Below, in pieces: positions 9,659 through 64,000 of a stretch of 64,000 nucleotides of DNA. The translations under genes and the position numbers were made by a program. The notes beneath the pieces are model-generated. The model was not told the origin of the DNA and did no database searches. It worked only from the letters and a program-made list of their open reading frames with translations. Positions within the stretch are counted from its first letter, which is position 1. Every line of letters begins with the position of its first letter. The DNA is from Candidatus Dormiibacterota bacterium (GTDB lineage Bacteria > Chloroflexota > Dormibacteria > Dormibacterales > Dormibacteraceae): assembly GCA_024280995.1 (NCBI GenBank), contig JAMXLM010000045.1, forward strand, positions 80,264 through 144,263, written 5' to 3'.

Positions 9659-12600
9659 CTAGACGGGCGCCGCAACCCCGGTCGTCACCCGGTATGCCAT
9701 GACCGGGGCGGGAAAACCTTTGAGCGTGAGTGTCGCCTGCTCGACTGCAAGGCGCCTCCCCTCGAGCCATTCGCCGACCCGGCGATACGCCTCCTCGCTG
9801 AGCATCACCTCACCCGCGCCGGCCGCTGACTGCAGTCGCGAGGCAAGGTTTGTGACCTCGCCGAGAACGCTGAGGTTCGCCGACTCGGCGAGGTTGCCGA
9901 CGACTGCCGGACCCACGGCAACCGCCGCCCCGACCGGGAGCTCGGCGAGCGCCGCCTTGTCGATGATCGCGATCGCAGCTCGGAGCGCATCCAGCGCGTG
10001 GTCGACCGTTTGCCCGCTGACGTTGAACGTGGCCATCACCGCGTCGCCGGCGAACTTGTCGACGACGCCGTGCCGCCGCTCGACCTCCTGGGTAGCCCAT
10101 CGCTGCAGTGAAGCGATTCGGCCCGCAATCTCCGAGGGGACCGATCGACCGGTCAGCTCCGTGTAACCGCGCACGTCCGCGAACATCACGGACACCATCC
10201 GCTCGCCTGTCGCAACTCGCACGGCGCCGCGTGCGGCGACGTCCGCTTCGGGCGGCATGGCGATCTGCAAACCAAGCCTGTTTGCCACGTCCAGCGCCAG
10301 TCGAGCGGCGAGGGCGGCGCCCGCGGCGGTGGCATGCGCGACGATGCGCGTCAGACGGTCCTCGGCGGCCTCGACGTCGCCGGAGGCGTGCTCGGCCTCT
10401 GCCAGCGCCCGACCCGCGTGCCACGCGTCGAGGTTCAGCCCAGCCTCCTCGAACGAGGTCACCGCTCGGCCGAGAAGGCGAATCGCGTCCGCGGTCTTTC
10501 CCTCGAGCAGCGCCAGCCGTCCGCGCGCCGAATCGTATCGAGGAGATGCCAGGGCCTCACCCTGCGCGGGAATGGATTCGATGTACTTGCGCAGCCAAAC
10601 TGCGTCGCCGGCCGTCTCCGCGACCGCGTCGGTGGGCGCAACGAGCAAGCAGGCACGGGCCGGGATGGCTGCAGCCTCCTCGAAGGCGCCCACTGCGTCG
10701 CCCGCCGCCAGCCGCAGGCGGATTCTTCCCTCGCCGTCGTAGACGGCGTCCTGTGAGTCGACGCGACTGGAGCGCGGCGGCATCACCGCCGCAGCCTCGG
10801 AACTGCGCATGTTCTCGGCCAGGGCGCTTCCCAGCACCACCGAAGCGCGCCACAGCATCTTCGCGAACCCACCATCGCGCGCGCGCTGCACGGAGCCGCG
10901 AGCGTGAGCGATCGCGTCGACGACCTGGCCCCGCTTGAGCGCAATCAACGAGCGGATGTAGTAAGGCCAGGGGTCGGAATCCACGTTCACCTCGCGAGAC
11001 AAGCGCTCGTACCAGACGTCCACCTTGTCGCCACGCGCCAGGTGAACCGCTCCCCAGGCGGCGTTGCCGGTCACGTTGCCCACCTGGTACCTCTGGCCGG
11101 CGGCGACCGCGGCGTTGTAGCTGTCGTCGTTGTGAGCAAAGCCTTCCTCGACACGGCCCAGCTGGATCTCGCATCCGCCGACGAAATTCAAGGCCCACGC
11201 CAATGTGAGCTCGGCTCCGACCTGCCTGGCGACCTCGACCGCCCGAGTCGCATGCTCCAGGCCCACCGCCGGCCTCTGGTCGAACATCGCCAGGCCGGCG
11301 AGCCGTATGTAGGCGATGGCAAGCTGCTCGCTGGGTCCCGCGGCCTCCAGAACGTCACGCGCCGCCTGGTATTCGCGTTCCGCAAGGTCCGAGCGCTGGA
11401 GCTCCCACCAGCATCGCCCGAGCAATACTCGTTGCTCCGCCGCCTCCTGGCGGAGGCCTGCCTTCTCGAGACCCGCGATGCCCTCCTCCAGCAGGCGCTT
11501 GGCCAGCCCCGGCTCGTTGTTGTTCCAGTAGCCGTCCGCGGCCCGACACAGCACACGCGAGCGCTCGATCGAGTCGACGATGTATGGCGCGGCACGCTCG
11601 AGCAGCTGTGCAGCGTCCCTGTACGCCTGTGCGTGAAGCGCGTCATCCGCCGCGGTGATGCACATCGCGACCGCCTCCGCGTTGCGACCGGCCATCAGGA
11701 GGTGGTGCGCCAGGTCGACGGCGACTCGGTCCGGACGTGAGGCAAGCAGGTCAGCGATCCGTGAGTGCAGCTGCTGGCGGCGGGGCACCACCAGGTCCTC
11801 GTAGATCGCCTCGCGCGTCAGGGCATGGCGAAACCGATACCGGCCGGAGCTGCGATCCTCGGGCTCGATCAGCTGCGCGGCCACGCTCGACTCGAGCGCG
11901 GAGAGCGCCACGGCCTCATCCACTTGAGCAACCTGCGCCACCGCATCGAGGTCGAATGACCGCCCCATCACCGATCCTGCCGCGAGGACGGCGATGTCGT
12001 CGTGGCCCAGACGCTCGAGGCGCTGCAGTATGGCGTCGCGAACCGTTGGCGGGATGCGGATCTCCGCCAGCGACTTGCGGTCCCAGCCGGTTTCGGTGCG
12101 GTAGATGTCGCCGCGGTCGAGCGCGTCGCGCAGCATTTCCTCCAGAACGAACGGGTTGCCCTCGCTGCGCTCGCGGAGGAAGTCGCTGAACTCCTCGGAG
12201 ACCGTCTGCTCTTCGAAGATCGCGCCGACCATGTCCGCGACCTGAGTCGCGTTGAGGGGCTTCAGCTCGATCAAGTCGACCTGGCCGCTCCGGCGCCAAC
12301 CCTGGACGGTCGGCAGCAGCGCGTGCTTTCGGTGCATCTCGTCCGAGCGATAGGTCGCGACGACGAGCACGTTGGTCGAGCGAAGCCGGCGAGTCGCGTA
12401 GTCGAGCAGCTCACGCGTCGCCGGGTCCGCCCACTGCAGGTCCTCGAGGATCACCAGGAGCGCACGCCGGCTCGCGGCGTCGCGAAACAGGAGCAGCATC
12501 GATTCGAACAGCCGGAGCTTGGCCTGCGTCGCATCGCCGCCGGTTGACGCTGGGCGCCCCATCTGCGGGAACAGCTGCGCGAGCTCATCCGCCGCCGGAC

Positions 12601-20824: not shown

Positions 20825-20901
20825 TGGTGCCGGCGACAGGATTCGAACCTGCGACTGTCGGTTTAAAAGACCGCCGCTCTGCCAGGCTGAGCTACGCCGG
20901 C
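20825..20901 (-). tRNA. tRNA-Lys (anticodon TTT)
   Basis: Folded by hand. Acceptor GCCGGCG/CGCCGGC, D arm GCTC-AGCCTGGCA-GAGC, anticodon loop CTTTTAA, T arm GCAGG-TTCGAAT-CCTGT, encoded CCA. Confidence 0.9.
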
Positions 20902-21431: not shown

Positions 21432-23768
21432 CTACGTGATCGTGTAGTTGATCAGCGCGTAGACGTCGTACTGCGCCCCCGAGCCCTGTTGCCGCGCGTA
21501 CACGACCCATGAGTACGTGCCCTGCGTGAGCCCTGCGGTGTTCCAGCTCAGCGTCGCCGTGGACGAGTAGTCCTGGACCATCGTCCACGGGCCGCCGGGC
21601 GCGTAGACCCAGAACTGATACTGCGGCGTCCCGGTGGCCGCGGCGGTCAGCGTCACACCGCTTCCCGCGGCCTGTGGCGACGACAGGTTCGCGTTGAGGT
21701 TCACGGCGGGGATCCAAGCGAGCGTGTACGCCATGAGCGCGTACGTGTCGTACGCGGCGTTCGAGCTCGACTGCTTGACGTGGACGACGATGCTGTACGT
21801 CCCAGGCGACATGCCGGCGGTGTTCCAGTCGAAGCTCGCCGTCGAGCTCCAATCGCGCAGCAGACCGTACTGGTTCCCAGGCGCCGGGTAGTAGTAGTAG
21901 CGGTACAGCGGAGCAGTGCACCCGGGCGCGGCCGCTGAAAGATGGACGATGCCGCCGACCGATTGCGGCGACGCGTTGGTCGCGGAAGTGGATGGCGCAC
22001 CGCACGCGCCCTTCGGCAGCGCGCTCAAGGCCCACGTCTCGTAGGCGAGCGGCGAGCCCTTCTGCTTGACGTGAACGACGATCGAGTATGTCCCCGCGGC
22101 CAGCGCGGCGCTGTCGGTGCTCCATGTGTTGGTCGAGCTGAAGTCCTGTTTCATCACGTAGCCGGACGAGGCCGACCACAACCAGAACCTGTATTGAGGC
22201 TGGTTGCAACCTGTGCCGCCGGCGGTCGCAGTGAACGTCACGATGCCCGAGCTGGGCGCGGGGTTGGGCGTCATCGACGCGAAGTCGCAGCCGCCCACAG
22301 TCCACGCCTCGAGCGCGAACGTCTCGTAGGCCCCGGCGCCCTGGATCGAGCCAGACTCCTCCACCCACACGTCGACGCTGTAGGTCCCAGGAAGCATCCC
22401 GCTCGTGTCGAGTGCGAGCGTCGCGGTGCTGCTGTACGCCTGGCGCAGGGCCCATCCGCCGGCGGCCGACCACAGCCAGAACTCATAGACCGGACTCGTG
22501 CAGCGGGCGCCGGTCGCACTCGCGGTGAACGTGATCGCGGTTCCAGCCGGTTGGGGAGACGTCTTGCTCGAAGTGACGGCCGCCGCTGAGCAGTCGGGTG
22601 GGGCGTAGGTGTACACGTCCGCGGCCGACGTGGCGCTCGTGCCGCCGGCAGTGGTCACCGTCACGTCGACCGGACCGGTCGAATGAGCCGCGCTGGTCGC
22701 GGTGATCGTCGTCGAATCCACGACCGTGAACGAGGTCGCGGGGGCGTTGCCGAACATGACGCTCGACACGCCCTGGTCGAAAGCGGTGCCGCTGATCTTC
22801 ACGGGGGTCCCTCCGGTCCACGGGCCGGTCGCCGGCGTCAAGCCGGACACCACCGGCGGCACGGTCGCCAGCGGGCCGACGTTGAAGGACCACGTGTAAG
22901 CGGTCCCGTTGACCGTCATCGACACCACGTACTTCACGCCGGACTGGAGCGGCTTCTGTGGGATGAGGATCACACCGCCCCGGTCGATCAGGTCGCTCCC
23001 GAGCGCCGTGTTGTGCGTGTCGATCACGCAGTGCGCGAGCGCGGTTCCGTTGCCGGTGAACGAGTGGGCGGTCACGGTGGTGGCGACGTTGGTGCCGAGC
23101 TCGATGAAGGCCGGGAGGCCGGTCGGGACGCTGTATCCCGGACAGCCCTGCAGCGGGTCTGGAAACTCGCCGCCGCCGTAGCTGGTCAAGGGCTCGGTCG
23201 TGCCGTCACCGGGAAAGCGCACAGGAAACGCGCCGCCGGTGAAGGGGTTGCCGCTCAAGACGTCGACCGCCGCACCCATGTTCCAGCCCGACTTGACCTC
23301 TCGGTAAGAGCCGAAACCGGTCTGTGCGAGTCGTGGGTCGAGCATCCCCATCGCGTGGAACGGCGCCTGCATCCACCAGTCGATCGCCTGCACGTCGGTG
23401 GTCGCTGTGCTGGAGCTCACGTAGATGTTGCTGTTGCGCGCGGCCGTGTCGCCGGCCGCCGTGTAGAACGGCGTCCCCGGCGTCTCGTAGTGCGTGACGA
23501 GATCGTTCTTGACCATGTAGACCGCGTGGTCGTAGTCGCCGGCGCTGTAGGTCGCGTTCTCGGTCAAGGTCGGCACCCGCGCCTCCAGGCGCCACGCGTT
23601 GAAGCGATTGAGCCAGGGGGTGGACGCGACCGGCCGTGATTCGGGCTGGTGGCGGAGCGGCTCCGACGCCGGCAGCTGCGCCATCGCGATCAGCAGCACC
23701 GGCGGGAGAGTGAGACGGAGAGTTCGGGCCGCCAGACCCAGCCCGCGGACGATCCTGGTTGGCACCAC
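21432..23768 (-). CDS. secreted CAP/SCP-domain protein with an IPT/TIG domain and four ~95-aa C-terminal repeats
   Basis: Signal-like N-terminus. CAP-like region (NRFNAWRLEARVP...HYETPG...WWMQAPFHAMGMLDP). IPT/TIG-like segment (residues ~303-388). Four repeats of pattern P.Y.FW...G.W......SST....W.T.G..PGTY...V.V. Confidence 0.7.
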   Translation of the reverse strand: MVPTRIVRGLGLAARTLRLTLPPVLLIAMAQLPASEPLRHQPESRPVASTPWLNRFNAWRLEARVPTLTENATYSAGDYDHAVYMVKNDLVTHYETPGTPFYTAAGDTAARNSNIYVSSSTATTDVQAIDWWMQAPFHAMGMLDPRLAQTGFGSYREVKSGWNMGAAVDVLSGNPFTGGAFPVRFPGDGTTEPLTSYGGGEFPDPLQGCPGYSVPTGLPAFIELGTNVATTVTAHSFTGNGTALAHCVIDTHNTALGSDLIDRGGVILIPQKPLQSGVKYVVSMTVNGTAYTWSFNVGPLATVPPVVSGLTPATGPWTGGTPVKISGTAFDQGVSSVMFGNAPATSFTVVDSTTITATSAAHSTGPVDVTVTTAGGTSATSAADVYTYAPPDCSAAAVTSSKTSPQPAGTAITFTASATGARCTSPVYEFWLWSAAGGWALRQAYSSTATLALDTSGMLPGTYSVDVWVEESGSIQGAGAYETFALEAWTVGGCDFASMTPNPAPSSGIVTFTATAGGTGCNQPQYRFWLWSASSGYVMKQDFSSTNTWSTDSAALAAGTYSIVVHVKQKGSPLAYETWALSALPKGACGAPSTSATNASPQSVGGIVHLSAAAPGCTAPLYRYYYYPAPGNQYGLLRDWSSTASFDWNTAGMSPGTYSIVVHVKQSSSNAAYDTYALMAYTLAWIPAVNLNANLSSPQAAGSGVTLTAAATGTPQYQFWVYAPGGPWTMVQDYSSTATLSWNTAGLTQGTYSWVVYARQQGSGAQYDVYALINYTIT

Positions 23769-23829: not shown

Positions 23830-25461
23830 GTGAGGAGACTCCTCGTCGCCCTCGTGGCCGTCGCCGCTGCCTGCAACCCGGTTCCAAGTCCCGGACCGTC
23901 GCCCGAACCGCTCGCCTCAGATCAGACCCTGAGCTTCCCCATCGCCCAGGACGTCGCCGACTTCGACCCGGCGATGATCTCCAGCCCGGCCGACGTCGAC
24001 ATCCTGCGCAACGTCTTCTCCGGCCTTTACCGCTTCGACTCCCAGCTCAGGGAGGTGCCAGACATTGCCGCAGGCCTGCCGGCGATCTCGGCCGACGGAC
24101 TGACTTACACGTTCCACCTTCGCGCCGGCGCGACCTTCTCGAACGGTGACGCGATCACCGCGGACGACTTCATCTACAGCTGGAACCGCGCGGCGGCCCT
24201 GCAGGGCGACTACGCCGGTCTGTTCGCCGTCGTCGCGGGCTACCAGGCCGTCGCGTCGGGTCGAGCCGCCGCGATGACCGGCCTCGCCAAGGTCGACGAC
24301 ACGACATTCACCGCCACGCTGACGAAGCCCGCAGGCTACTTCCTTGCCGAGGTCGGACTCTGGCCGTTCTGGGTGGTCGACCAGAAGGTGATCGCCGGCG
24401 CCGGCGAAGACGTGTGGTCAACGAAGCCCGAGACATTGATCGGCAGCGGTCCTTTTCGGATGACCGCGCGCTCACCTGGACAGTCGATGGACTTCGCGCC
24501 GGTGGCGAGCTGGTACGGCGGCAAGACCGGGCTCCTGACGCACGTGCACGTCGCCGTGATGCAGGACACCAGCACCCAGGTCGAGCTGTACGAGGCGGGC
24601 GTGTTCAGCCTCATCGGCTACGCCCGCCAGGGGCTGCCCGCAAAGGACGCGAATCGCTACACGACCGAGGCCAAGCTCAAGGGCGAGCTGGCCCTGGTCC
24701 CGTCGGCAACGACGTTCTGGGTCGGCTTCAACCTCCGGTCCGGCCCTTTCGCCGGGGTCGACGCAGGTCGCGGCGGCCGGCACGCCTTCAGCACCGCGAT
24801 CGACCGCCATGCGCTCGCCGACGCTGTCTGCGACGCGATGACGAGCTGCCGCGAGGAGACCGGAGGCGTCATCAGCAAGGGACTCACCGGTTACCTCGGC
24901 GACGGACAGGACCCCAACGTGAAGTTCGACGCGGCGGCGGCGAAAGCCGAGTACGCGGCATGGGATCCGACCGGCGCGAAGGTCAGGGGCCTGAAGTACA
25001 CGTACGACTCGAACCCCTTCAACAAGGCCGTCTGCGCGAACCTGCAGCAGCAATGGCTGAAGAACCTTGGGGTGACGGTCGGATGCGTCGAGATGGACCG
25101 CAAGACATTCTTCGACCAGCGCGACGCGTGCGCGTATCCGATTTTTCGCCAGAGCTGGTCGGCGGATTACGACCATCCGCAAGACTGGTTCGACTACCTC
25201 TTCGTCACGGGCGCGAGCTCAGGGGGTTCGTGCTATTCGAGCTCAGCCGTCGACAAGGCGGTCACCGGCGCGGATGCATCGACGGACCCATCGTCACTCG
25301 ATGACTACAAGACCGCCGGAATGGACCTGATCAGCGACTCCGCGTTCGCGGGACTGCTCTACGGCGTGCAGCAGTACCTCGTGCATCCGTATGTCAAAGG
25401 CGCGGGCGGTAACGCGCTGTACGACAACTCCTGGACCGAGGTTCGCATCCTCCAGCACTGA
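23830..25461 (+). CDS. ABC transporter substrate-binding lipoprotein, family 5 (peptide/nickel type), paralog 1
   Basis: GTG at 23830 (or 23818) gives the lipoprotein signal VRRLLVALVAVAAAC. Family-5 SBP pattern (LRNVFSGLYRFD...GLTYTFHLR...TFSNGD). Paralogous to 26792 and 33906. Confidence 0.85.
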   Translation: MRRLLVALVAVAAACNPVPSPGPSPEPLASDQTLSFPIAQDVADFDPAMISSPADVDILRNVFSGLYRFDSQLREVPDIAAGLPAISADGLTYTFHLRAGATFSNGDAITADDFIYSWNRAAALQGDYAGLFAVVAGYQAVASGRAAAMTGLAKVDDTTFTATLTKPAGYFLAEVGLWPFWVVDQKVIAGAGEDVWSTKPETLIGSGPFRMTARSPGQSMDFAPVASWYGGKTGLLTHVHVAVMQDTSTQVELYEAGVFSLIGYARQGLPAKDANRYTTEAKLKGELALVPSATTFWVGFNLRSGPFAGVDAGRGGRHAFSTAIDRHALADAVCDAMTSCREETGGVISKGLTGYLGDGQDPNVKFDAAAAKAEYAAWDPTGAKVRGLKYTYDSNPFNKAVCANLQQQWLKNLGVTVGCVEMDRKTFFDQRDACAYPIFRQSWSADYDHPQDWFDYLFVTGASSGGSCYSSSAVDKAVTGADASTDPSSLDDYKTAGMDLISDSAFAGLLYGVQQYLVHPYVKGAGGNALYDNSWTEVRILQH

Positions 25462-26791: not shown

Positions 26792-28486
26792 ATGACTCGA
26801 ATCGCCGTGTTCCGTTCCCTCGCCGTGGCGTTGGGAACAATTTCGATGGTCGCGGCCTGTGGAGGAGGCTCTAACAGCAACTCTTCCAACCTGGCCTCCG
26901 ACCAGACGCTCAGCTTCCCGATGGTCGACGACGTTGGGGACCTCGACCCCGCGCACATGTCGGCCGCGGTCGACATCGACATCTTCCGCAACACGTACTC
27001 GGGCCTGTACAAGTTCGACGACCAGCTGAACGAGGTTCCGGACATCGCGACCGGACAGCCTCAGATCTCGTCTGACGGGTTGACGTACACCTTCTCGCTG
27101 AAGCACAACGTCAAGTTCTCGAACGGCGACCCCGTCAAGGCCGACGACTTCATCTTCAGCTGGGACCGCGCGGCCGCCATTCAAGGCGACTACGCATCGG
27201 TCTTCCAGCCCGTGGTCGGCTACGACGCCGTCTCGAACGGCAAGGCCACCCACATGGACGGCCTCAAGAAGATCGACGACTACTCGTTCTCCGCGACGCT
27301 GACCGCCCCGGCCGGCTACTGGTTCACCGAGACCGCCCTCTGGACGGCCTGGGTGGTGGACCAGAAGGTCGTCCTCGCCAACGGCAAGGCGACCGACTCG
27401 ACGTGGGCCAGCACACCTGACACGGCGATCGGCACCGGGCAGTTCAAGATGACCGCCCGCACGCCGAAGCAGTCGATCGACTTCGCGCCCGTCGCCAACT
27501 GGTGGGGCGGCTCGACCGGCACCTTGACCAAGGTGCACATCGAGATCGTCGCCGACCAGAAGGCTCAGCTCACCAAGTACGAGTCCGGCGGTTACAGCCT
27601 GATCGGCTTCGCCAACCAGAGCCTCACCCCGGAGGACGTCATTCGCTACAACTCCGACTCGCAGCTGAAGAAGCAGCTGAACCTGCAGCCGTCCGCTCGC
27701 ACGAGCTGGATCGGCTTCAACCTCTGCGACTCGAGCAACCAGTCGACAGCCTGCAAGGGCCAGAAGCCCAGCCCGTTCGCCGGTAATGGCAACGGCAAGC
27801 TCCTCCGCGAGGCGTTCAGCCTGGCGATCGACCGCAACCAGCTCGTCGATATCGCTTGCTCCAAGGGCACTGCCTGTACGCCGGCGACCGGCGGAGTGAT
27901 CACCAAGGGGCTGAAGGGCTACCTCGGAGACAACACCGACCAGTGGGCCAAGTTCGACGCGACCCAGGCCAAGTCGCTGCTTCAGCAGGCCGGTGGCGCT
28001 GCTGCCGTCGGCAACCTGACTTACACCTACAACGCCAGCGCCATCAACAAGGCGGTGTGCGACAACCTGGCGTCACAGTGGCGCCAGAACCTCGGCGTCA
28101 CGGTCCAGTGCGCCTCCACTGACCGCGCGTCGTTCTTCAACGCGCGCACGAAGTGCAACTACACGATCTTCCGCCACAGCTGGGGCGCCGACTACGACAA
28201 CCCACAGGACTGGTTCGACTTCCTGTTCGACACGAACGGCGGTTCTTCCGGTTCCTGCCTCTCGGACCCCAACATCGACAAGATGTCCCAGGACGCCAAC
28301 CAGAAGCCGCTCAGCCAGTCGCTCGACGAGTACAAGGCGATGAACAAGATCCTCGTCGACAACTGCTACACCGGCAACCTCTTCTACGGCATCCAGCAGT
28401 ACCTGGTTCACCCGTACGTGAAGGGCGCTGCGGGCAACCCGCTCTACGACAACTACTGGAGCGACGTCAGCATCCTTTCGCACTAG
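26792..28486 (+). CDS. ABC transporter substrate-binding lipoprotein, family 5, paralog 2
   Basis: AGGAGG 5 nt upstream of the ATG. Lipobox MVAAC. Family-5 pattern. First gene of the SBP-permease-permease-ATPase-ATPase operon. Confidence 0.9.
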   Translation: MTRIAVFRSLAVALGTISMVAACGGGSNSNSSNLASDQTLSFPMVDDVGDLDPAHMSAAVDIDIFRNTYSGLYKFDDQLNEVPDIATGQPQISSDGLTYTFSLKHNVKFSNGDPVKADDFIFSWDRAAAIQGDYASVFQPVVGYDAVSNGKATHMDGLKKIDDYSFSATLTAPAGYWFTETALWTAWVVDQKVVLANGKATDSTWASTPDTAIGTGQFKMTARTPKQSIDFAPVANWWGGSTGTLTKVHIEIVADQKAQLTKYESGGYSLIGFANQSLTPEDVIRYNSDSQLKKQLNLQPSARTSWIGFNLCDSSNQSTACKGQKPSPFAGNGNGKLLREAFSLAIDRNQLVDIACSKGTACTPATGGVITKGLKGYLGDNTDQWAKFDATQAKSLLQQAGGAAAVGNLTYTYNASAINKAVCDNLASQWRQNLGVTVQCASTDRASFFNARTKCNYTIFRHSWGADYDNPQDWFDFLFDTNGGSSGSCLSDPNIDKMSQDANQKPLSQSLDEYKAMNKILVDNCYTGNLFYGIQQYLVHPYVKGAAGNPLYDNYWSDVSILSH

Positions 28487-32484: not shown

Positions 32485-32579
32485 CTTTCTACCCGACCGG
32501 GCCGTTTGTATCCAAAAGCACCGGTCGGTGAACCGCCCTGGGTTTGCTGGAGACTCCATTCCTTGGGAGGATGGAGCCG

Positions 32580-32936
32580 ATGTCAACGCAGCAGCCAACG
32601 TCTCAGCCAGGAGCAGCGAACCAGAAGCGTTATCCGAAGGAACTCCGGCAGCGTGCAGTGAGGATGGTCCGTGAGGCCATCAAGGAGCAGGGCAGTCCGC
32701 ACGGCGTCATAACCCGAATCTCGATCCAGCTCGGCGTCGGCTCAGAGAGCCTGCGCCACTGGGTCAAGCAAGCCGACGTCGACGACGGCCTGCGAGCGGG
32801 CACCCCGAGCGAGGAGCGGAAGCGGATCCTCGAGTTAGAGAAGGAGAACCGAGAGCTGCGCCGGGCCAACGAGATCTTGAAGGCAGCAGCGTCTTTCTTC
32901 GCGCGGGAGCTCGACCCGCAGCCACCCAGTTCGTGA
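32580..32936 (+). CDS. IS3-family transposase OrfA (HTH)
   Basis: ATG 32580 lies 9 nt after GGGAGG. KRYPKELRQRAVRMV... HTH, followed by a leucine-zipper-like ELEKENRELRRANEILKAA. Confidence 0.85.
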   Translation: MSTQQPTSQPGAANQKRYPKELRQRAVRMVREAIKEQGSPHGVITRISIQLGVGSESLRHWVKQADVDDGLRAGTPSEERKRILELEKENRELRRANEILKAAASFFARELDPQPPSS

Positions 32937-33817
32937 GCTTCGTCGACGCCCACCGCGAGCGCTGGGGAGTCGAGCCGATCTGCCAGACGCTGCAGATTGC
33001 TCCCTCGACGTACTACGCGGCCAAGGTTCGGCGACCGAGTCGGCGCCGGCAGCTGGACCAGCAGTTGAAGCCAGCGGTGAGCCGGGTTCACGACGAGAAC
33101 CTCGGCGTCTATGGGGTCCGAAAGGTCTGGCGACAACTCGGCCGGGAGAGCTTGCCAGTAGGTCGTGACCGAGTCGCCCGTCTAATGCGCGAACTCGGTC
33201 TGGCCGGTGTCGTACGCGGGAAGGTGAAGCGGACGACACTGCCCGGACGCAGTCCGGAGCCAGCCCACGACCTCGTCGAACGCAACTTCAAAGCAGTCGC
33301 TCCGAATCGACTCTGGGTCGCCGACCTGACCTATGTCAGCGCCTGGCCGGGGTTCGTCTATGTCGCTTTTGTGATTGACGTCTTCAGCCGCTATGTGGTC
33401 GGTTGGCGCGTCTCAAATTCGCTGCGTGCCGAACTCGCCGCGGATGCGCTCGAGATGGCGTTGTGGACCCGTCGCGGGAGCCAGCTTGAAGGGCTGGTTC
33501 ACCACTCCGACCGTGGCAGTCAGTACGTCGCTGTCCGGTACACGCAACGCCTGGTAGAGGCCGGAGCAGTTCGCTCCGTCGGGTCACGAGGCGACAGCTA
33601 CGACAACGCGCTGGCCGAGTCGGTGATTGGCCTCTACAAAGCCGAGCTGATTCGCCGGCGCGGACCCTGGCGTTCGCTCGAACAGGTCGAGCTTGCCACC
33701 GCCGAATGGGTTGACTGGTGGAATCGGCGTCGACTCCATGGCGCAAATGGGAACGTGCCGCCGGCGGAGTTAGAGACCGGCTACGCTCTCGCCTGCGACG
33801 CGTCAGGTGTCGCGTGA
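32933..33817 (+). CDS. IS3-family transposase OrfB (DDE/rve integrase core); probably expressed as an OrfAB fusion by -1 frameshift
   Basis: -1 frame relative to orfA and open far upstream. DDE residues in WVADLTY, HSDRGSQY, DNALAES. YY motif APSTYYAAK. Confidence 0.88.
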   Translation: MSFVDAHRERWGVEPICQTLQIAPSTYYAAKVRRPSRRRQLDQQLKPAVSRVHDENLGVYGVRKVWRQLGRESLPVGRDRVARLMRELGLAGVVRGKVKRTTLPGRSPEPAHDLVERNFKAVAPNRLWVADLTYVSAWPGFVYVAFVIDVFSRYVVGWRVSNSLRAELAADALEMALWTRRGSQLEGLVHHSDRGSQYVAVRYTQRLVEAGAVRSVGSRGDSYDNALAESVIGLYKAELIRRRGPWRSLEQVELATAEWVDWWNRRRLHGANGNVPPAELETGYALACDASGVA

Positions 33818-33905
33818 TTCCAAGCCGCCGAGTCTCCATCGAACCCAGGGCGGTTCACGGTGCATGCCGACCGGGCCGTTTGTATCCAAACGGCCGTCAG
33901 GAGTT

Positions 33906-41804: not shown

Positions 41805-41818
<14 letters not shown>
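40163..41818 (-). CDS. acyl-CoA dehydrogenase family protein (AidB-like)
   Basis: 551 aa. DYNLFESD...RTHDRFGERIDEVDFHPAWHELM N-terminal AidB-type region. ACAD core MTERQGGSDV, GQKWFCSAP. Confidence 0.8.
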
Positions 41819-42848
<1,030 letters not shown>

Positions 42849-42926
42849 TTAGAGTGTCTCGCCCCTGACAGTCCGGGCATCTTCGCGCCCTCGAATCTGC
42901 GACGGCCTGCGGGAGCGTGACACTCC
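42849..42926 (-). promoter_or_regulatory. structured leader motif, short copy (copy A)
   Basis: In RNA sense: GGAGUGUCACGCUCCC...GCAGAUUCG-agggcg-CGAAGAUGC...AGGGGCGAGACACUCU-AA-GUG. Shares blocks, order and start context with 63720-63941. Confidence 0.6.
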
Positions 42927-42932
42927 GCCAGA

Positions 42933-44258
42933 TTAGAAGGTCTGGTAGAGCAGGAAGACGTTCAGCCCGATGATCAGGGCGGCCACCGCGAAGGCCGCGT
43001 AGTTGGTCAGCCTGCCGTTGGCGAGGCCGTTCATCAGCCGCTTGTCGCGCGTGAACAGCACGAGGGGAATCATCGCGAACGGGATCCCGAAGGAAAGGAA
43101 GACCTGGCTCAAGACCAGCGCCCGCGACGGGTCGAAGTGGATGCCGATCACGATCAGCGCGGGCACCATCGTGATGGCCCGGCGGAGAAAGACCGAGATC
43201 TTGCGCCGGATGAAGCCCTGCATCACGACCTGGCCGGCCAGCGTCCCTACCGATGACGACGAGATGCCTGACGCCAGAAGGGCGATGCCGAATATGACAC
43301 CGCTGTGTGTGCCCAGGTACTGCTCGAAGCCGCCCGCGACCTGGGTCAGGTTGCTGCCGGTGTCGAGCAGACCGCGCGAGTTGAACACTGCGGCCGCCGT
43401 CGTGAGCATCGCCAGGTTGATCACGCCCGCGATGCCCATCGCGATGACGACGTCGACCAGCTCGAAGTGGAAGATCTTGCGCTTCGCCTCGGTGTTGGCG
43501 CCGACGATCCGCTTCTGCGTGAGCGCCGAGTGCAGGTAGATGACGTGCGGCATCACGGTCGCGCCGAGGATGCCCGCGGCCAGCAGGATCGACTCGCGGC
43601 CATCGAGGCTCGGGATGAACGTGTTGCGGGCCACCGAGCCCCAGGACGGGTCCGCGCGGAAAACCTCGAGTCCGAAGGCGATGACGATCAAGCCGACGAG
43701 CCCGGTGATGGTCGCCTCGAGGCGGCGGAATCCCCAGGCCTGCAGGCCGAGGATCGCGAACGCCGCGACGCCGGTCAGCAGCGCGGCGGCGAAGAGCGGA
43801 ATTCCAAACAGGATGTTCAGACCGAGGGCGGCGCCGACGAACTCCGCGAGGTCGGTGGCCATGGCGATGAGCTCGGCCTGAACCCAGAGGAAGTAGACGA
43901 CGGGCAGCGGGAAGCGGTCGCGGCAGATCTCGGGAAGGCTCTTGCCGGTGGCGATGCCGAGCTTGGCGCTCATCGCCTGGATGAGCATCGCCATGAGGTT
44001 GGCGGCCAGCACCACCCACAGCAGCATGTAGCCGTAGCGCGAGCCGCCGGCCATGTTCGTGGCGAAGTTGCCGGGGTCGACGTAGGCGACGGCGGCGATG
44101 AACGCTGGGCCGAGGAACGGGAGGACCGCGCGGATGCCGCGGCGCTCACCGGTGATGGAGCGCTCGGCGGCGCGAAGCACGCGCAGCTCGCCCGGGAGGG
44201 CGTTCTCCGCGCCGACGACGACGGACTGGGCGACGGTCGTTCGGACGAGCTCCGCCAC
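42933..44258 (-). CDS. mntH: Nramp-family divalent metal (Mn2+/Fe2+) transporter
   Basis: DPGNFATN and MPHVIYLHS signature motifs. About 11 TM. Confidence 0.92.
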   Translation of the reverse strand: MAELVRTTVAQSVVVGAENALPGELRVLRAAERSITGERRGIRAVLPFLGPAFIAAVAYVDPGNFATNMAGGSRYGYMLLWVVLAANLMAMLIQAMSAKLGIATGKSLPEICRDRFPLPVVYFLWVQAELIAMATDLAEFVGAALGLNILFGIPLFAAALLTGVAAFAILGLQAWGFRRLEATITGLVGLIVIAFGLEVFRADPSWGSVARNTFIPSLDGRESILLAAGILGATVMPHVIYLHSALTQKRIVGANTEAKRKIFHFELVDVVIAMGIAGVINLAMLTTAAAVFNSRGLLDTGSNLTQVAGGFEQYLGTHSGVIFGIALLASGISSSSVGTLAGQVVMQGFIRRKISVFLRRAITMVPALIVIGIHFDPSRALVLSQVFLSFGIPFAMIPLVLFTRDKRLMNGLANGRLTNYAAFAVAALIIGLNVFLLYQTF

Positions 44259-49114: not shown

Positions 49115-49191
49115 TGGTAGCCCCGGCGGGATTCGAACCCGCGATCTCAGCCTTGAGAGGGCTGCGTCCTAGGCCGCTAGACGACGGGGCC
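49115..49191 (-). tRNA. tRNA-Glu (anticodon CTC)
   Basis: Hand fold: GGCCCCG acceptor (G1-U72), GTCTAGCGGCCTAGGAC D region, anticodon stem-loop CAGCC-CTCTCAA-GGCTG, T arm GCGGG-TTCGAAT-CCCGC, encoded CCA. Confidence 0.85.
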
Positions 49192-49197
49192 GCGATC

Positions 49198-49272
49198 TGG
49201 TGGGCGGCATTGGGTTTGAACCAATGACCTCTTGCGTGTGAAGCAAGCGCTCTCCCACTGAGCTAGCCGCCC
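49198..49272 (-). tRNA. tRNA-Val (anticodon CAC)
   Basis: Hand fold: GGGCGGC acceptor, GCTC-AGTGGGA-GAGC, CTTGC-TTCACAC-GCAAG, ATTGG-TTCAAAC-CCAAT, encoded CCA. 6 nt upstream of tRNA-Glu. Confidence 0.9.
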
Positions 49273-61609: not shown

Positions 61610-62362
61610 TTAGTCGCGGTCTGAGGCGGCCTCAGACTCGGTCCTGGACCAGATCTCAGCCGCCATCGGCTCCTCCATTTCCTCCTGCAGGTGTGCCACA
61701 AGACCGATCGCGCGCGCCATGACCGCCAGCCCGCGGGTGATGCGCCAGGGCAGCTCCATCTCGCTCGCGATCGCGGCGATGGCGCCGGTGGCGTTGACCG
61801 GGAGCTCGCGGCCGGTCTCCTTCGACGCCTCCTTGCCGATCAGCTGCATCAGCTGCACGTGGTGCCTGGAGAACCCATGCTCGGCGGCAAGGTCGAACAA
61901 CCGAGCGGTGCGCGGATCGCCCGCCTTGTGCGTCGGGTGCCCGAGGCCCGGTATGGGCTGCTTGCGGTCACGGTGCTCCTCGACGATCCGGCGGGCGGTC
62001 TGGTGCGGGTCGTGGTCGTGCGGGGCCTCCTGCAGCATCCGCGCCGCCTGCTCGATCGAACCGCCGAACCGGTCGCCCATGCCGAGCAGCCCGGCGGCCA
62101 CCGCTGCCTGCAGCGCCTCGGGAGCGCCGTAGTAGGTGAGACGTGCGGCGATCGTGCTGGGCGTGATCCCGTGCTCGACGAGAGTGACGGCGATGGCGTT
62201 GAACATCAGCGACTCGCGCTCGTCGGGGAGGCGTCCCTTCAGCTCGAGGTACGCGACGTCGCCGAGGTTGGCCTTGCCGATCAGGCCGGCGAGGTCGTGG
62301 CCGCGGACGAAGATCCGGTCGGCTGTGCTGTGGCCGAGCGCGGAACGGAGCTTGCGGCTCAC
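61610..62362 (-). CDS. short citrate-synthase-fold protein (citryl-CoA lyase-like)
   Basis: 250 aa. ...MFNAIAVTLVEHG...PGLGHPTHKAGDPR...ARAIGLVAHLQEE. Only the C-terminal catalytic half of the citrate-synthase fold is present. Confidence 0.7.
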   Translation of the reverse strand: MSRKLRSALGHSTADRIFVRGHDLAGLIGKANLGDVAYLELKGRLPDERESLMFNAIAVTLVEHGITPSTIAARLTYYGAPEALQAAVAAGLLGMGDRFGGSIEQAARMLQEAPHDHDPHQTARRIVEEHRDRKQPIPGLGHPTHKAGDPRTARLFDLAAEHGFSRHHVQLMQLIGKEASKETGRELPVNATGAIAAIASEMELPWRITRGLAVMARAIGLVAHLQEEMEEPMAAEIWSRTESEAASDRD

Positions 62363-63699
62363 CCTTCGCCCCTCCTCGAGAGCCTCGTCTTGTACCCGGC
62401 TTCGCCGAAATCAGCCTCCGGGACCAGCGCGATCCTGGATCGGAAGGTGAGCTTCGAGTGGATCGCGTCCTCGATCTCTTTGACGAGTCGGTCATCCGCG
62501 GCGTGACCGCCCGTGACCTCGACCTCGATCGGTATCGGCGGCTCGATCGAAGTGTCGGTACCTGTTCGCACGACGCGGGCACGGCCCGTGACGCGCGGCC
62601 GGAAATCGCCGACGACCGACAGGATCGCCGTCGGATAGACGTTCACACCGCGGACGATGAACATGTCGTCGCGCCGGCCGAGAATACGCATTCTGAAGGT
62701 CGTGCGCTCGCATTCGCACGACGTGCCTTCGATGCGCACGATGTCGCCGCCGAGAAACCGCACAACCGGCATCGCCTCCCGTGTCAGGGCGGTGTAGACG
62801 AGCTCACCCACGGCACCGGTCTCGATCTCCATCGGCTCGCGAGAGTCGGGGTCGATCAGCTCGACCCATACGTGTCCCCCGCCGCAGAAGTGCATACCCT
62901 GCTGATGCGGGCACTCGCCGAACAGCGACGGGGCGACGTCGCCGATTCCCATGACCTCGGTGACGGTCACGCCCAGCTCCTTCTGGATGTGGTCGCGGAT
63001 CGCCGGGATTCCACCACCGGGCTCGCCTCCGGTGACGACGTGCGTCAGCAGGCCCAGTTGGTCGTGAGTCTTGTTGGCGAGGTACTGAGCGAAGGAAGCG
63101 GTCGCAAGCAGCGTGTCGGCCAGACCGGCGCGGAGGCCGAACAGGGTGCGCGTGGTATCGCCCGGGGCCACCGGGACCGAGCGAGCGCCGATGCGCAGGA
63201 GCACGAAATGCGTGTGGCCCGCGACGAACGGCCCCGCGCCGAAGGTGGTCAGCACGCTCGAGTGCTCGTGGATCCCCGTCGCGTAGTAGGTCCGGGTGCC
63301 CATTACCGTCCACGTCTCCATGTCGCCGCGCGTGAGCGCCAGCACGCTCGGCGTGCCCGAGGTCCCGCTGGTCTGGTAGACGCGCTTCACCTGGTCGGGG
63401 GCCACGCACAGGTTGCTGCCGAACGGCGGGTCCCCGTCTAGGGCCAGCTTGAGCTCGTCCTTGGTGGTGAACGGAAGCTCGTTCAGGTCGGCAAGGCTCA
63501 CGAAAGAGTTGCCGACGCCCGCCTCCTTCCACTTGCCCGCGTAGAACCGTGACGACTCGCGCAGGCGTCGGAACTGACGCTCCCACGCGCCGACGGAAAG
63601 CCGGCGAGTCTCCTCCCACGGCGCCGCCTCGACCTCGCGCTCCCAGATCCAGTCGCGCTCGCAGGCGTCGCCTTTGAGCCGGTTCGCGGTCATGGCCAT
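62359..63699 (-). CDS. phenylacetate-CoA ligase-like adenylate-forming enzyme (PaaK/F390 synthetase family)
   Basis: YQTSGTSGTPS P-loop, ...GGEPGG..., PaaK-type C-terminal domain. 4-nt overlap with the downstream lyase-like gene. Confidence 0.8.
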   Translation of the reverse strand: MAMTANRLKGDACERDWIWEREVEAAPWEETRRLSVGAWERQFRRLRESSRFYAGKWKEAGVGNSFVSLADLNELPFTTKDELKLALDGDPPFGSNLCVAPDQVKRVYQTSGTSGTPSVLALTRGDMETWTVMGTRTYYATGIHEHSSVLTTFGAGPFVAGHTHFVLLRIGARSVPVAPGDTTRTLFGLRAGLADTLLATASFAQYLANKTHDQLGLLTHVVTGGEPGGGIPAIRDHIQKELGVTVTEVMGIGDVAPSLFGECPHQQGMHFCGGGHVWVELIDPDSREPMEIETGAVGELVYTALTREAMPVVRFLGGDIVRIEGTSCECERTTFRMRILGRRDDMFIVRGVNVYPTAILSVVGDFRPRVTGRARVVRTGTDTSIEPPIPIEVEVTGGHAADDRLVKEIEDAIHSKLTFRSRIALVPEADFGEAGYKTRLSRRGEG

Positions 63700-63719
63700 G
63701 CGAGCAGATTAACCTTGCA

Positions 63720-63941
63720 AGAGTGTCACGCCCCTCGCGGGCCGATGCAGATTCGCGGCATCGACGGCCGGAGCCAAGGAAAGGGTGGCGCGAGGAGAGC
63801 GCAATACCTTCTGGGGTCCCCGCGCCGTGGTCGCGGGGGCAGCGACGCCGCGCCGGGCCCCCTTGACGTCGGCTTCAGCGCCGCAGGCGCCCGGCCGTCT
63901 AGGCCGCGAAGATGCGCCGTCCGTCGGGGGCGTGACACTCT
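63720..63941 (+). promoter_or_regulatory. structured leader motif, long copy (copy B)
   Basis: 15-bp perfect long-range helix 63720-63734 / 63927-63941. Inner helix 63747-63759 / 63903-63915 with a tandem G.A. Same conserved blocks as 42849-42926. Ends 2 nt before GTG 63944. Confidence 0.6.
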
Positions 63942-63943
63942 AA

Positions 63944-64000
63944 GTGGGTCCCAAGATCCTGCCGACCACGGTGGTCGGCAGCTATCCACAGCCTGACTGG
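63944..64000 (+). CDS. cobalamin-independent methionine synthase (MetE-like, short form), 5' fragment running off the window
   Basis: VGPKILPTTVVGSYPQPDW, the family-typical LPTT.VGSYP.P.W N-terminus. An in-frame TAA lies directly upstream of the GTG. Confidence 0.6.
   Translation, partial: MGPKILPTTVVGSYPQPDW

Follow-up and report, generated by a model that had tools for sequence, protein, structure and literature searches.

Why should one and the same structured sequence lie directly before the start codons of two unrelated genes? The question is raised by a 64,000 nucleotide (nt) stretch of Candidatus Dormiibacterota bacterium (contig JAMXLM010000045.1, positions 80,264–144,263), here termed the window. 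At one site in it, long inverted arms end next to the GTG of a MetE-like gene, and at another a shorter version of the same sequence precedes an LLM-type oxidoreductase gene. A reading of the window from its letters alone (the sequence-only reading) had proposed a riboswitch or translational operator. The comparisons presented here replace this false riboswitch candidate with a previously undescribed repeat family in the Dormibacterota, a phylum present in these data only as metagenome-assembled genomes (MAGs) and metagenome contigs. We hold with good confidence that the sequence is a structured interspersed repeat, i.e. a mobile element. The segment at positions 63721–63940 is a full-length copy of a non-autonomous, Dormibacterota-specific interspersed repeat, and that at positions 42852–42925 an internally deleted copy. 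The family is an unusually elaborate variant of the bacterial structured interspersed repeat.

Two copies of the element in the window

The long copy is on the plus strand at positions 63721–63940 and corresponds to positions 1–195 of the family model. It is 220 nt long owing to one optional hairpin module, and its nhmmer scores are 146 bits with a 15-copy profile and 128.7 bits with a 70-copy profile. The terminal arms form helix P1. The 5′ arm, AGAGTGTCACGCCCC (63720–63734), is the exact reverse complement of the 3′ arm, GGGGCGTGACACTCT (63927–63941), and the helix gains one further pair, A63720/T63941, beyond the ends of the element itself. P2 is formed by GCAGATTCGCGGC (63747–63759) and GCCGCGAAGATGC (63903–63915) and contains a tandem G.A/A.G. 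P3 (helix 5), formed by GACGGCCGG (63763–63771) and CCGGCCGTC (63891–63899), leads to a three-way junction from which P4 and P5 extend.

P4 is a long conserved arm at positions 63772–63874 (AGCCAAGGAAAGGGUGGCGCG ... GCGCCGGGCCCCCUUGACG.CGGCU), comprising helices 6–9. It is the most conserved part of the family and displays conserved G.U pairs at alignment columns 69–127 and 87–105. P5 is a short hairpin, GCGCC-GCA-GGCGC, at positions 63878–63890 (helix 10); it is 100% paired and has two covarying pairs. Alignment of copies places the optional nested hairpin module (CUGGGGUCCCCGCG..CGCGGGGGCAG) in the apical loop of P4 at positions 63806–63842. The module is about 26–37 nt in length, is also found in L012 and L015, and is missing from the 194-nt copies. 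No second copy of the module was found in the window, and its status as a separate repeat is rejected.

The RNA fold of positions 63711–63950 has a free energy of −149.8 kcal/mol compared with −117.8 ± 5 for dinucleotide shuffles (z = −6.39), and none of 200 shuffles is as good. The comparable value for the short copy is z = −2.9.

The short copy is on the minus strand at positions 42852–42925 and is 74 nt long. It is detected by nhmmer as two pieces, model positions 2–36 joined to 154–194; relative to the canonical form, positions 37–153 are deleted. A repeat search of the window matched the two copies over 49 nt with 84% identity, and the 13-mer GACACTCTAAGTG has exactly two occurrences, one in each copy. 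A sensitive profile search of the window likewise found these two copies only.

The helices, coordinates and GTG position given for the long copy in the sequence-only reading are all confirmed, with a fold that is better than that of the shuffles. This is also the case for the second copy, on the minus strand before the unrelated LLM gene and followed by the identical start context TAAGTG. The proposal that about 140 nt of the long copy constitute a variable apical insertion has to be reversed: this segment belongs to the most conserved part of the family, and it is the short copy that carries a deletion. Variability in length holds for the optional module (roughly positions 63806–63842) and not for the rest of the 140 nt. 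A miniature inverted-repeat element with an internal-deletion variant, which had been offered as the alternative, is essentially the correct description.

Size and range of the repeat family

An exact-pattern scan with the 5′ arm and P2, made on one genome per species, gave 19 loci, and 15 of these also have the 3′ arm. All 15 are in MAGs labelled Dormiibacterota, Chloroflexi CF_ or Limnocylindrales. The remaining four are from other phyla, have no 3′ arm and look like chance matches. At least 120 loci were found in metagenome contigs with a 24-nt pattern from the core, and an nhmmer profile search over approximately 1 Mb of fetched DNA gave 138 matches, including 120 unique full copies. More than 130 copies were recovered in all, and those bearing the 3′ arm are confined to Dormibacterota-type MAGs and soil metagenomes. 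Searches of plasmids, phages and viral contigs with the element gave no match. Rfam 15 shows no match to the element at the gathering score across the window, and nothing relevant at E ≤ 10 for the two window copies or at E ≤ 1 for three canonical copies. No description of the element was found in the literature on Dormibacterota repeats, leaderless genes or MITEs (miniature transposable elements with inverted repeats).

The canonical element is about 194 nt long and its interior is conserved almost base for base between species. Length variants of 214–260 nt are explained by two optional nested hairpin modules located in two different loops. The second module reads CCCCGGGGUCCCCGCGAAAUCGCAGAUUUCGUGGGGUGGG, and GGGGUCCCCGCG is common to both. 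An internally deleted form of 45 nt is present in L026.

Several loci (L022, L084, L121 and L101) contain two copies of the element, and many matches end at contig edges. Three Logan contigs (L148–L150), from independent assemblies, have a ligase gene 100% identical to that of the window, and all three end 59–67 nt into the element. Contig breaks inside the element, together with double-copy loci, represent the behavior of multi-copy repeats in assemblies. Short-read assemblies of these MAGs are interrupted by the element and the called gene starts are displaced, and a covariance model of the element would improve their annotation.

A conserved fold that belongs to one strand

Covariation was analyzed in 70 copies of 186–200 nt. 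The consensus structure has 61 pairs in 10 helices, and consists of a rod (P1–P3) capped by the three-way junction (P4, P5). Compensatory changes are found in 34 of the 61 pairs, compared with 15.6 in shuffles. The proportion of paired cells is 96.4% (90.0% in shuffles) and there are 200 double-change cells, compared with 32 in shuffles and at most 52 in slid controls. The sequence-only reading, with the two window copies alone, had described its covariation support as thin. In P1 (helix 1), all 14 pairs show compensatory changes. Inverted terminal arms are present in every copy, and their sequence drifts with compensatory changes so that only about GAGTGTC/GACACTC is semi-conserved. The conservation profile shows that the interior loops and the junction are nearly invariant and that the terminal arms are the most variable part.

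The ratio of G.U to A.C at paired positions is 67:9 in copies that are sense to the neighboring gene and 57:3 in antisense copies. In addition, the model-sense strand folds more stably than its complement in 72 of 73 copies. This shows that the folded molecule is always the same strand of the element, whatever the direction of the host gene. The structure would be needed by the element itself, most likely in a folded intermediate of single-stranded RNA or DNA, and the adjacent gene would have no need of it.

A GTG is found at positions 3–5 of the element (window positions 63723–63725 and 42923–42921), which is where the native promoter would start transcription. A transcript could therewith resemble one with a leaderless start. 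The frame of this GTG ends exactly at the junction TAA/TAG in 13 of the 46 sense copies. A conserved upstream open reading frame or peptide was considered and rejected: one-nucleotide insertions and deletions give three different frames, and in 32 copies the frame is closed by a stop codon inside the element.

Empty sites and putative leaderless promoters

At the MetE-like locus, a relative without the element (L151) has the sequence TAACCT TGCGAAT GTG, with the divergent genes 28 nt apart. The window sequence is TAACCT TGCAA (element) TAA GTG, and a third genome (L153) has TACCCT TGCG (194-nt element) TA GTG. The −10-type hexamer of L151, 7 nt before the start codon, has the predicted architecture of a leaderless gene. 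In the window the same −10-like box, TAACCT, is at positions 63710–63715 on the plus strand, 5 nt upstream of the long copy.

The gap between the Nramp and LLM genes is 12–16 nt in eight syntenic loci of relatives compared with 84 nt in the window, and alignment shows that the element is absent from the relatives; a search of their loci for halves of the element motif was also negative. The relatives display TAAGCT-N6-GTG with the Nramp stop codon upstream or overlapping, and the window displays TAATCT GGCG (element) TAA GTG. The N-terminus of the LLM protein is identical in the window and in homologs without the element. In the window, TAATCT (positions 42930–42935, minus strand) lies 4 nt upstream of the short copy, and it is the TAA stop of the Nramp gene (42933–42935) doubling as a −10-like box. 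One relative without the short copy, L001, has GACACTCCA (positions 9985–10000) directly before the LLM GTG, with GACACTCCAGTG at the insertion position. This stretch resembles the last bases of the 3′ arm of the element and may be the remnant of a deletion. The empty sites in syntenic relatives show that each window copy is an insertion into the gap that separates a −10 box from a leaderless start codon.

The family as a whole displays the same arrangement. Of 46 sense copies, 36 have a TANNNT motif that ends 3–8 nt upstream of the element, most often at 5 nt, compared with none of 46 in a control window. In the fetched Dormibacterota DNA, TANNNT is enriched 6–11 nt upstream of candidate starts, and Shine-Dalgarno (SD) 5-mers are flat with no positional peak. 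From this pattern the Dormibacterota genomes appear to be rich in leaderless genes. The TAA or TAG stop codon of an upstream gene often doubles as the first bases of the −10 box of the next gene, e.g. TAAGCT before the LLM gene in relatives. In operon-internal copies, most of which are antisense, the upstream stop codon overlaps the arm of the element (TAG followed by TGTC...) and the next start codon is at the other end.

The family spreads within genomes, and its surviving copies are found in the tiny non-coding gaps of compact, leaderless-rich genomes. These gaps are of two kinds, from the −10 box to the start codon it serves, or from the stop to the start codon of adjacent genes. Transcription from the native −10 box would then begin at the first 1–3 nt of the element, and the mRNA would bear a 5′-terminal rod whose base ends 3 nt before the GTG.

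Neighboring genes and orientation

Flanking genes were called by third-position GC, and a start codon was counted when it lay within 9 nt of an arm. In 48 copies a start codon follows the 3′ arm on the model-sense strand, at a distance of 2–3 nt in 45 of them. In 34 copies the start codon is beyond the 5′ arm on the opposite strand, mostly at 0–3 nt. Two copies have start codons at both ends and 36 at neither end. Thus, with 82 copies classifiable, the element is antisense to the abutting gene in 34.

Proximity to a start codon characterizes the entire family in both orientations, and it results from the location of copies either in the gap of approximately 7 nt that separates a −10 box from a leaderless start or in a stop-to-start gap. 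The sequence-only reading had taken the fixed spacing to the GTG as an argument against a mobile element, an argument that fails with this finding. It had also stated that a MITE-like repeat would be recognized by copies in both orientations without fixed spacing to start codons; the two orientations are indeed found.

The abutting genes of more than 80 copies are functionally unrelated. They include wecB, aroC, mazG, fumarase, ACAD, arsA, polA, ligD, glpX, selB, accD, hisH, fabG and genes for a mur ligase, a PBP, LLM and MetE-like proteins, and Pfam analysis of 20 of the abutting genes shows unrelated housekeeping functions. Where the family model covers the N-terminus (e.g. AroC, ArsA and GlpX), the Pfam matches start at residues 1–9, and the called starts of such enzymes are therefore genuine.

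Orientation depends on context. Among copies with a −10 box 36 are sense and five are antisense (binomial p = 8e-7), and among copies without one 10 are sense and 28 are antisense (Fisher p = 2e-8 for context dependence). The antisense copies are mostly operon-internal; examples are found in the hisB–hisH interval and flanking fabG at either end. The commonest flank is TA: of 116 copies, 34 have it directly after the 3′ arm, and it is common on the sense-3′ side only.

Mobility and competing explanations

Orthologous sites provide information on the dynamics of the element. At the aroC (four cases), mazG and fumarase sites, and at others, the element is kept in the same orientation between species, with modules gained or lost. 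At two orthologous sites the orientations are opposite, i.e. arsA-like (L138 compared with L022) and gatC-like (L041 compared with L054). At gatC the breakpoints differ, the flank amounting to 6+2 nt in one of the genomes and to 1+6 nt in its counterpart, inside a gap of about 7 nt between the −10 box and the ATG. This arrangement suggests that the element either entered the single permissive gap repeatedly and independently or was inverted in place. The open reading frames between paired copies are hisH, a methyltransferase gene and fabG only. There is no sign of guide-like complementarity between element and flanks, the mean longest match being 6.96 nt compared with 7.06 nt for shuffled pairings.

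Several observations weigh against a mobile element as the full explanation. No flanking direct repeat indicative of a target-site duplication was found around 116 copies, and the loci inspected, short of a systematic search of whole genomes, show no neighboring transposase, reverse transcriptase or autonomous partner. The interior is far more conserved than the freely covarying arms, and in this the element is unlike typical MITEs and more like a functional RNA. Copies that persist at orthologous sites across species may be more than mere parasites. The 36:5 excess of sense copies at promoters suggests either polar insertion or selection on the sense RNA as a 5′ leader. Finally, a scan for full sigma-70 promoters of the E. 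coli type found nothing at the two window sites, and since this strict scan was empty, the −10 assignment is a positional one drawn from the enrichment of TANNNT.

A proposal that would accommodate several of these points, and which is put forward tentatively as doubtful, is that the element is a structured RNA module that moves and has become adapted to leaderless genes. Its insertion site would be the +1 position of leaderless promoters or a position adjoining it, and the host promoter would give it an exact 5′ end. The sense RNA could be a new type of cleavage signal, either self-processing or RNase-directed, by which the mRNA becomes leaderless again and the insertion phenotypically silent. 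It could also, or instead, serve a new mobility pathway, of the retro or the single-stranded DNA type, as the single-stranded intermediate. Such a module would account for a core with almost no variation, a UA conserved behind P1 and the excess of sense copies at promoters.

Somewhat less probable, and in our view unlikely, is a 5′ RNA module of a generic cis-acting type whose mobility is incidental, with a sense RNA that is functional and kept by selection. Cleavage at the UA after P1, by the RNA itself or by a host RNase, might regenerate a leaderless mRNA. Other options are that a helix-capped 5′ end protects the mRNA, or that a start codon at the foot of the helix permits SD-independent loading. 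The sense excess at −10-box sites is as such a module would predict, as is the placement of the −10 box 4–6 nt before the first base, with a transcript predicted to start at the first bases of P1. The start codon 2–3 nt after the 3′ arm, the UA that is conserved on the sense strand only, the near invariance of the interior loops and junction, the retention of copies at orthologous sites and the lack of an SD signal in these genomes are also in accord with it. The antisense copies are not: 34 of them keep the G.U bias of the sense strand, which shows that conservation of the structure is independent of a leader role for the host gene. Furthermore, relatives express the same genes without the element, copies shortened internally to 74 nt and 45 nt are tolerated in this position, and there is no similarity to Rfam ribozymes or leaders. 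The sense bias at promoter sites leaves room for a generic 5′-leader role that is not specific to a ligand.

It is very improbable that the copies are independent small-RNA genes, 6S-like or otherwise trans-acting, whose own promoters are merely shared with the downstream genes. The element, an approximately 194-nt rod with internal loops, has about the size and shape of a 6S RNA, and a constant spacing to a −10 box, seen in 36 of the 46 sense copies, and a strongly conserved interior would fit such a gene. The −10 boxes, however, belong to the host genes and occur in the empty sites as well, and about 40% of the classifiable copies are operon-internal and have no promoter for the sense strand. 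The copies are also too numerous, and their insertions too polymorphic, for a housekeeping RNA, and the Rfam 6S models are not matched.

Least credible of all is the metabolite riboswitch or protein-bound translational operator, in which P1 would occlude the MetE-like and LLM starts in response to a methionine, one-carbon or F420-related signal: a stable structured RNA with covariation indicative of a real fold, a 3′ arm that ends 2 nt before a GTG and a MetE-like gene downstream are what such a leader would show, but the downstream genes share no pathway, both orientations occur (34 of 82 copies being antisense), the orthologous leaders of close relatives have no element, the short copy occupies the same kind of site without the entire conserved core, and there is no Rfam match, terminator or SD sequence to sequester. 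The element is most probably not a ligand sensor. The unrelated functions of the abutting genes likewise give no support to the suggested link to methionine or one-carbon metabolism, and the statement that no known riboswitch class is recognizable at the two loci agrees with the Rfam scans.

Comparison with known systems

The structured interspersed repeat favored here has features in common with several families but is identical to none of them. Dispersed copies that are present or absent between relatives, with empty sites at both window loci, are characteristic of MITEs. A hairpin kept by compensatory changes and a fold favored on one strand are characteristic of REPINs and of IS200/IS605-type elements. 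In REPIN/REP sequences (mobilized by RAYT, an IS200/IS605-like Y1 enzyme) compensatory changes in the hairpins are common, and the importance of the structure is considered to lie in a single-stranded intermediate (PMC3116915). Like REPINs, the element is non-autonomous, multi-copy, hairpin-forming and extragenic; its arms covary, its fold is strand-specific, there is no target-site duplication and copies persist vertically. REPINs are simple hairpins of about 70–110 nt with conserved ends and a variable spacer, whereas the element is about 194 nt long, has a three-way junction, is most conserved in its interior and variable at its ends, and is located between a −10 box and a start codon. No RAYT or Y1 transposase was found with it, no search aimed at one having been made.

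A TA duplication and fixed 26-bp inverted repeats are found in Correia elements. Both the Correia (CREE/NEMIS) family of Neisseria and the ERIC sequences of enterobacteria are co-transcribed with genes, and their hairpin RNA alters mRNA processing or stability, with RNase III acting at the inverted repeats and RNase E in the case of ERIC; promoters of their own and an IHF site are present in Correia elements (PMC10969869). The element is similar to both in being a MITE-like repeat of the 100–200 bp kind, directly upstream of genes or between the genes of operons and in either orientation. Unlike Correia elements it has no TA duplication, fixed 26-bp repeats, promoter or IHF site of its own and uses the −10 box of the host. 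Unlike both Correia and ERIC it has a complex conserved core and an orientation bias that depends on context.

The mycobacterial MIRUs are operon repeats whose ends overlap the upstream stop and downstream start codons, and they consist of 46–101 bp tandem-repeat units with small open reading frames, in a single orientation and with no elaborate fold. Operon-internal copies of the element are comparable in that they supply a TAG stop codon at one end and abut a start codon at the other. They differ from MIRUs in being single, structured, found in both orientations and without a conserved reading frame.

Similarity to riboswitches and other 5′ leaders is seen in the RNA of about 200 nt, the closing P1 next to the start codon, the covarying stems and the conserved junctions. 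The differences are the lack of a coherent regulon, the unfixed orientation, presence or absence among close relatives and the lack of an Rfam family. Unlike the omega RNA of TnpB/IscB systems and the bridge RNA of IS110, the element has no segment that matches its flanks better than chance, and no tnpB, iscB or IS110 gene is adjacent in the loci inspected.

The element is therefore an unusual bacterial interspersed repeat, with a complex fold, covariation at the level of a tRNA and a core more conserved than the ends. Its precise placement between −10 boxes and leaderless starts and its context-dependent orientation are unusual as well. If the sense RNA is processed or aids initiation, it would show how a genome with leaderless translation tolerates or exploits insertions at the start of transcription.

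Genes beside the window copies

The long copy is followed, at positions 63941–63946 on the plus strand, by the junction TAA and the GTG start codon (63944) of the MetE-like gene. The gene belongs to the Meth_synt_2 family and runs off the window; an ortholog has 340 amino acids and displays PF01717. The other neighbor of the long copy is a divergent phenylacetate-CoA-ligase-like gene on the minus strand at positions 62359–63699.

At the short copy, the junction TAA and GTG are at positions 42846–42851 on the minus strand and lead into an LLM F420-type oxidoreductase gene (41805–42848, PF00296). The Nramp and LLM genes that flank this copy are part of an IdeR-Nramp-LLM-AidB cluster. The LLM protein has no exact database entry, and its homologs with 84–97% identity are Dormibacteraeota or Chloroflexi MAG proteins. 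No Shine-Dalgarno sequence is present upstream of the MetE-like and LLM start codons, and no terminator-like site was found at the two window sites.

Other features of the window

An IS3-family insertion sequence, unrelated to the repeat, is at positions 32528–33858. It contains an Rfam ALIL frameshift pseudoknot at positions 32888–33004 (71 bits), and its 29-nt inverted repeats at 32528–32556 and 33830–33858 are 93% complementary. Two paralogous stretches, at positions 24136–24866 and 27116–27849, lie about 3 kb apart and have 70–84% identity; these are probably the result of a gene duplication. Three 81-nt repeats spaced 291–294 nt apart at positions 21743–22408 probably represent repeated protein domains. 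Three tRNA genes are recognized by Rfam on the minus strand, at positions 20828–20901, 49118–49191 and 49201–49272.

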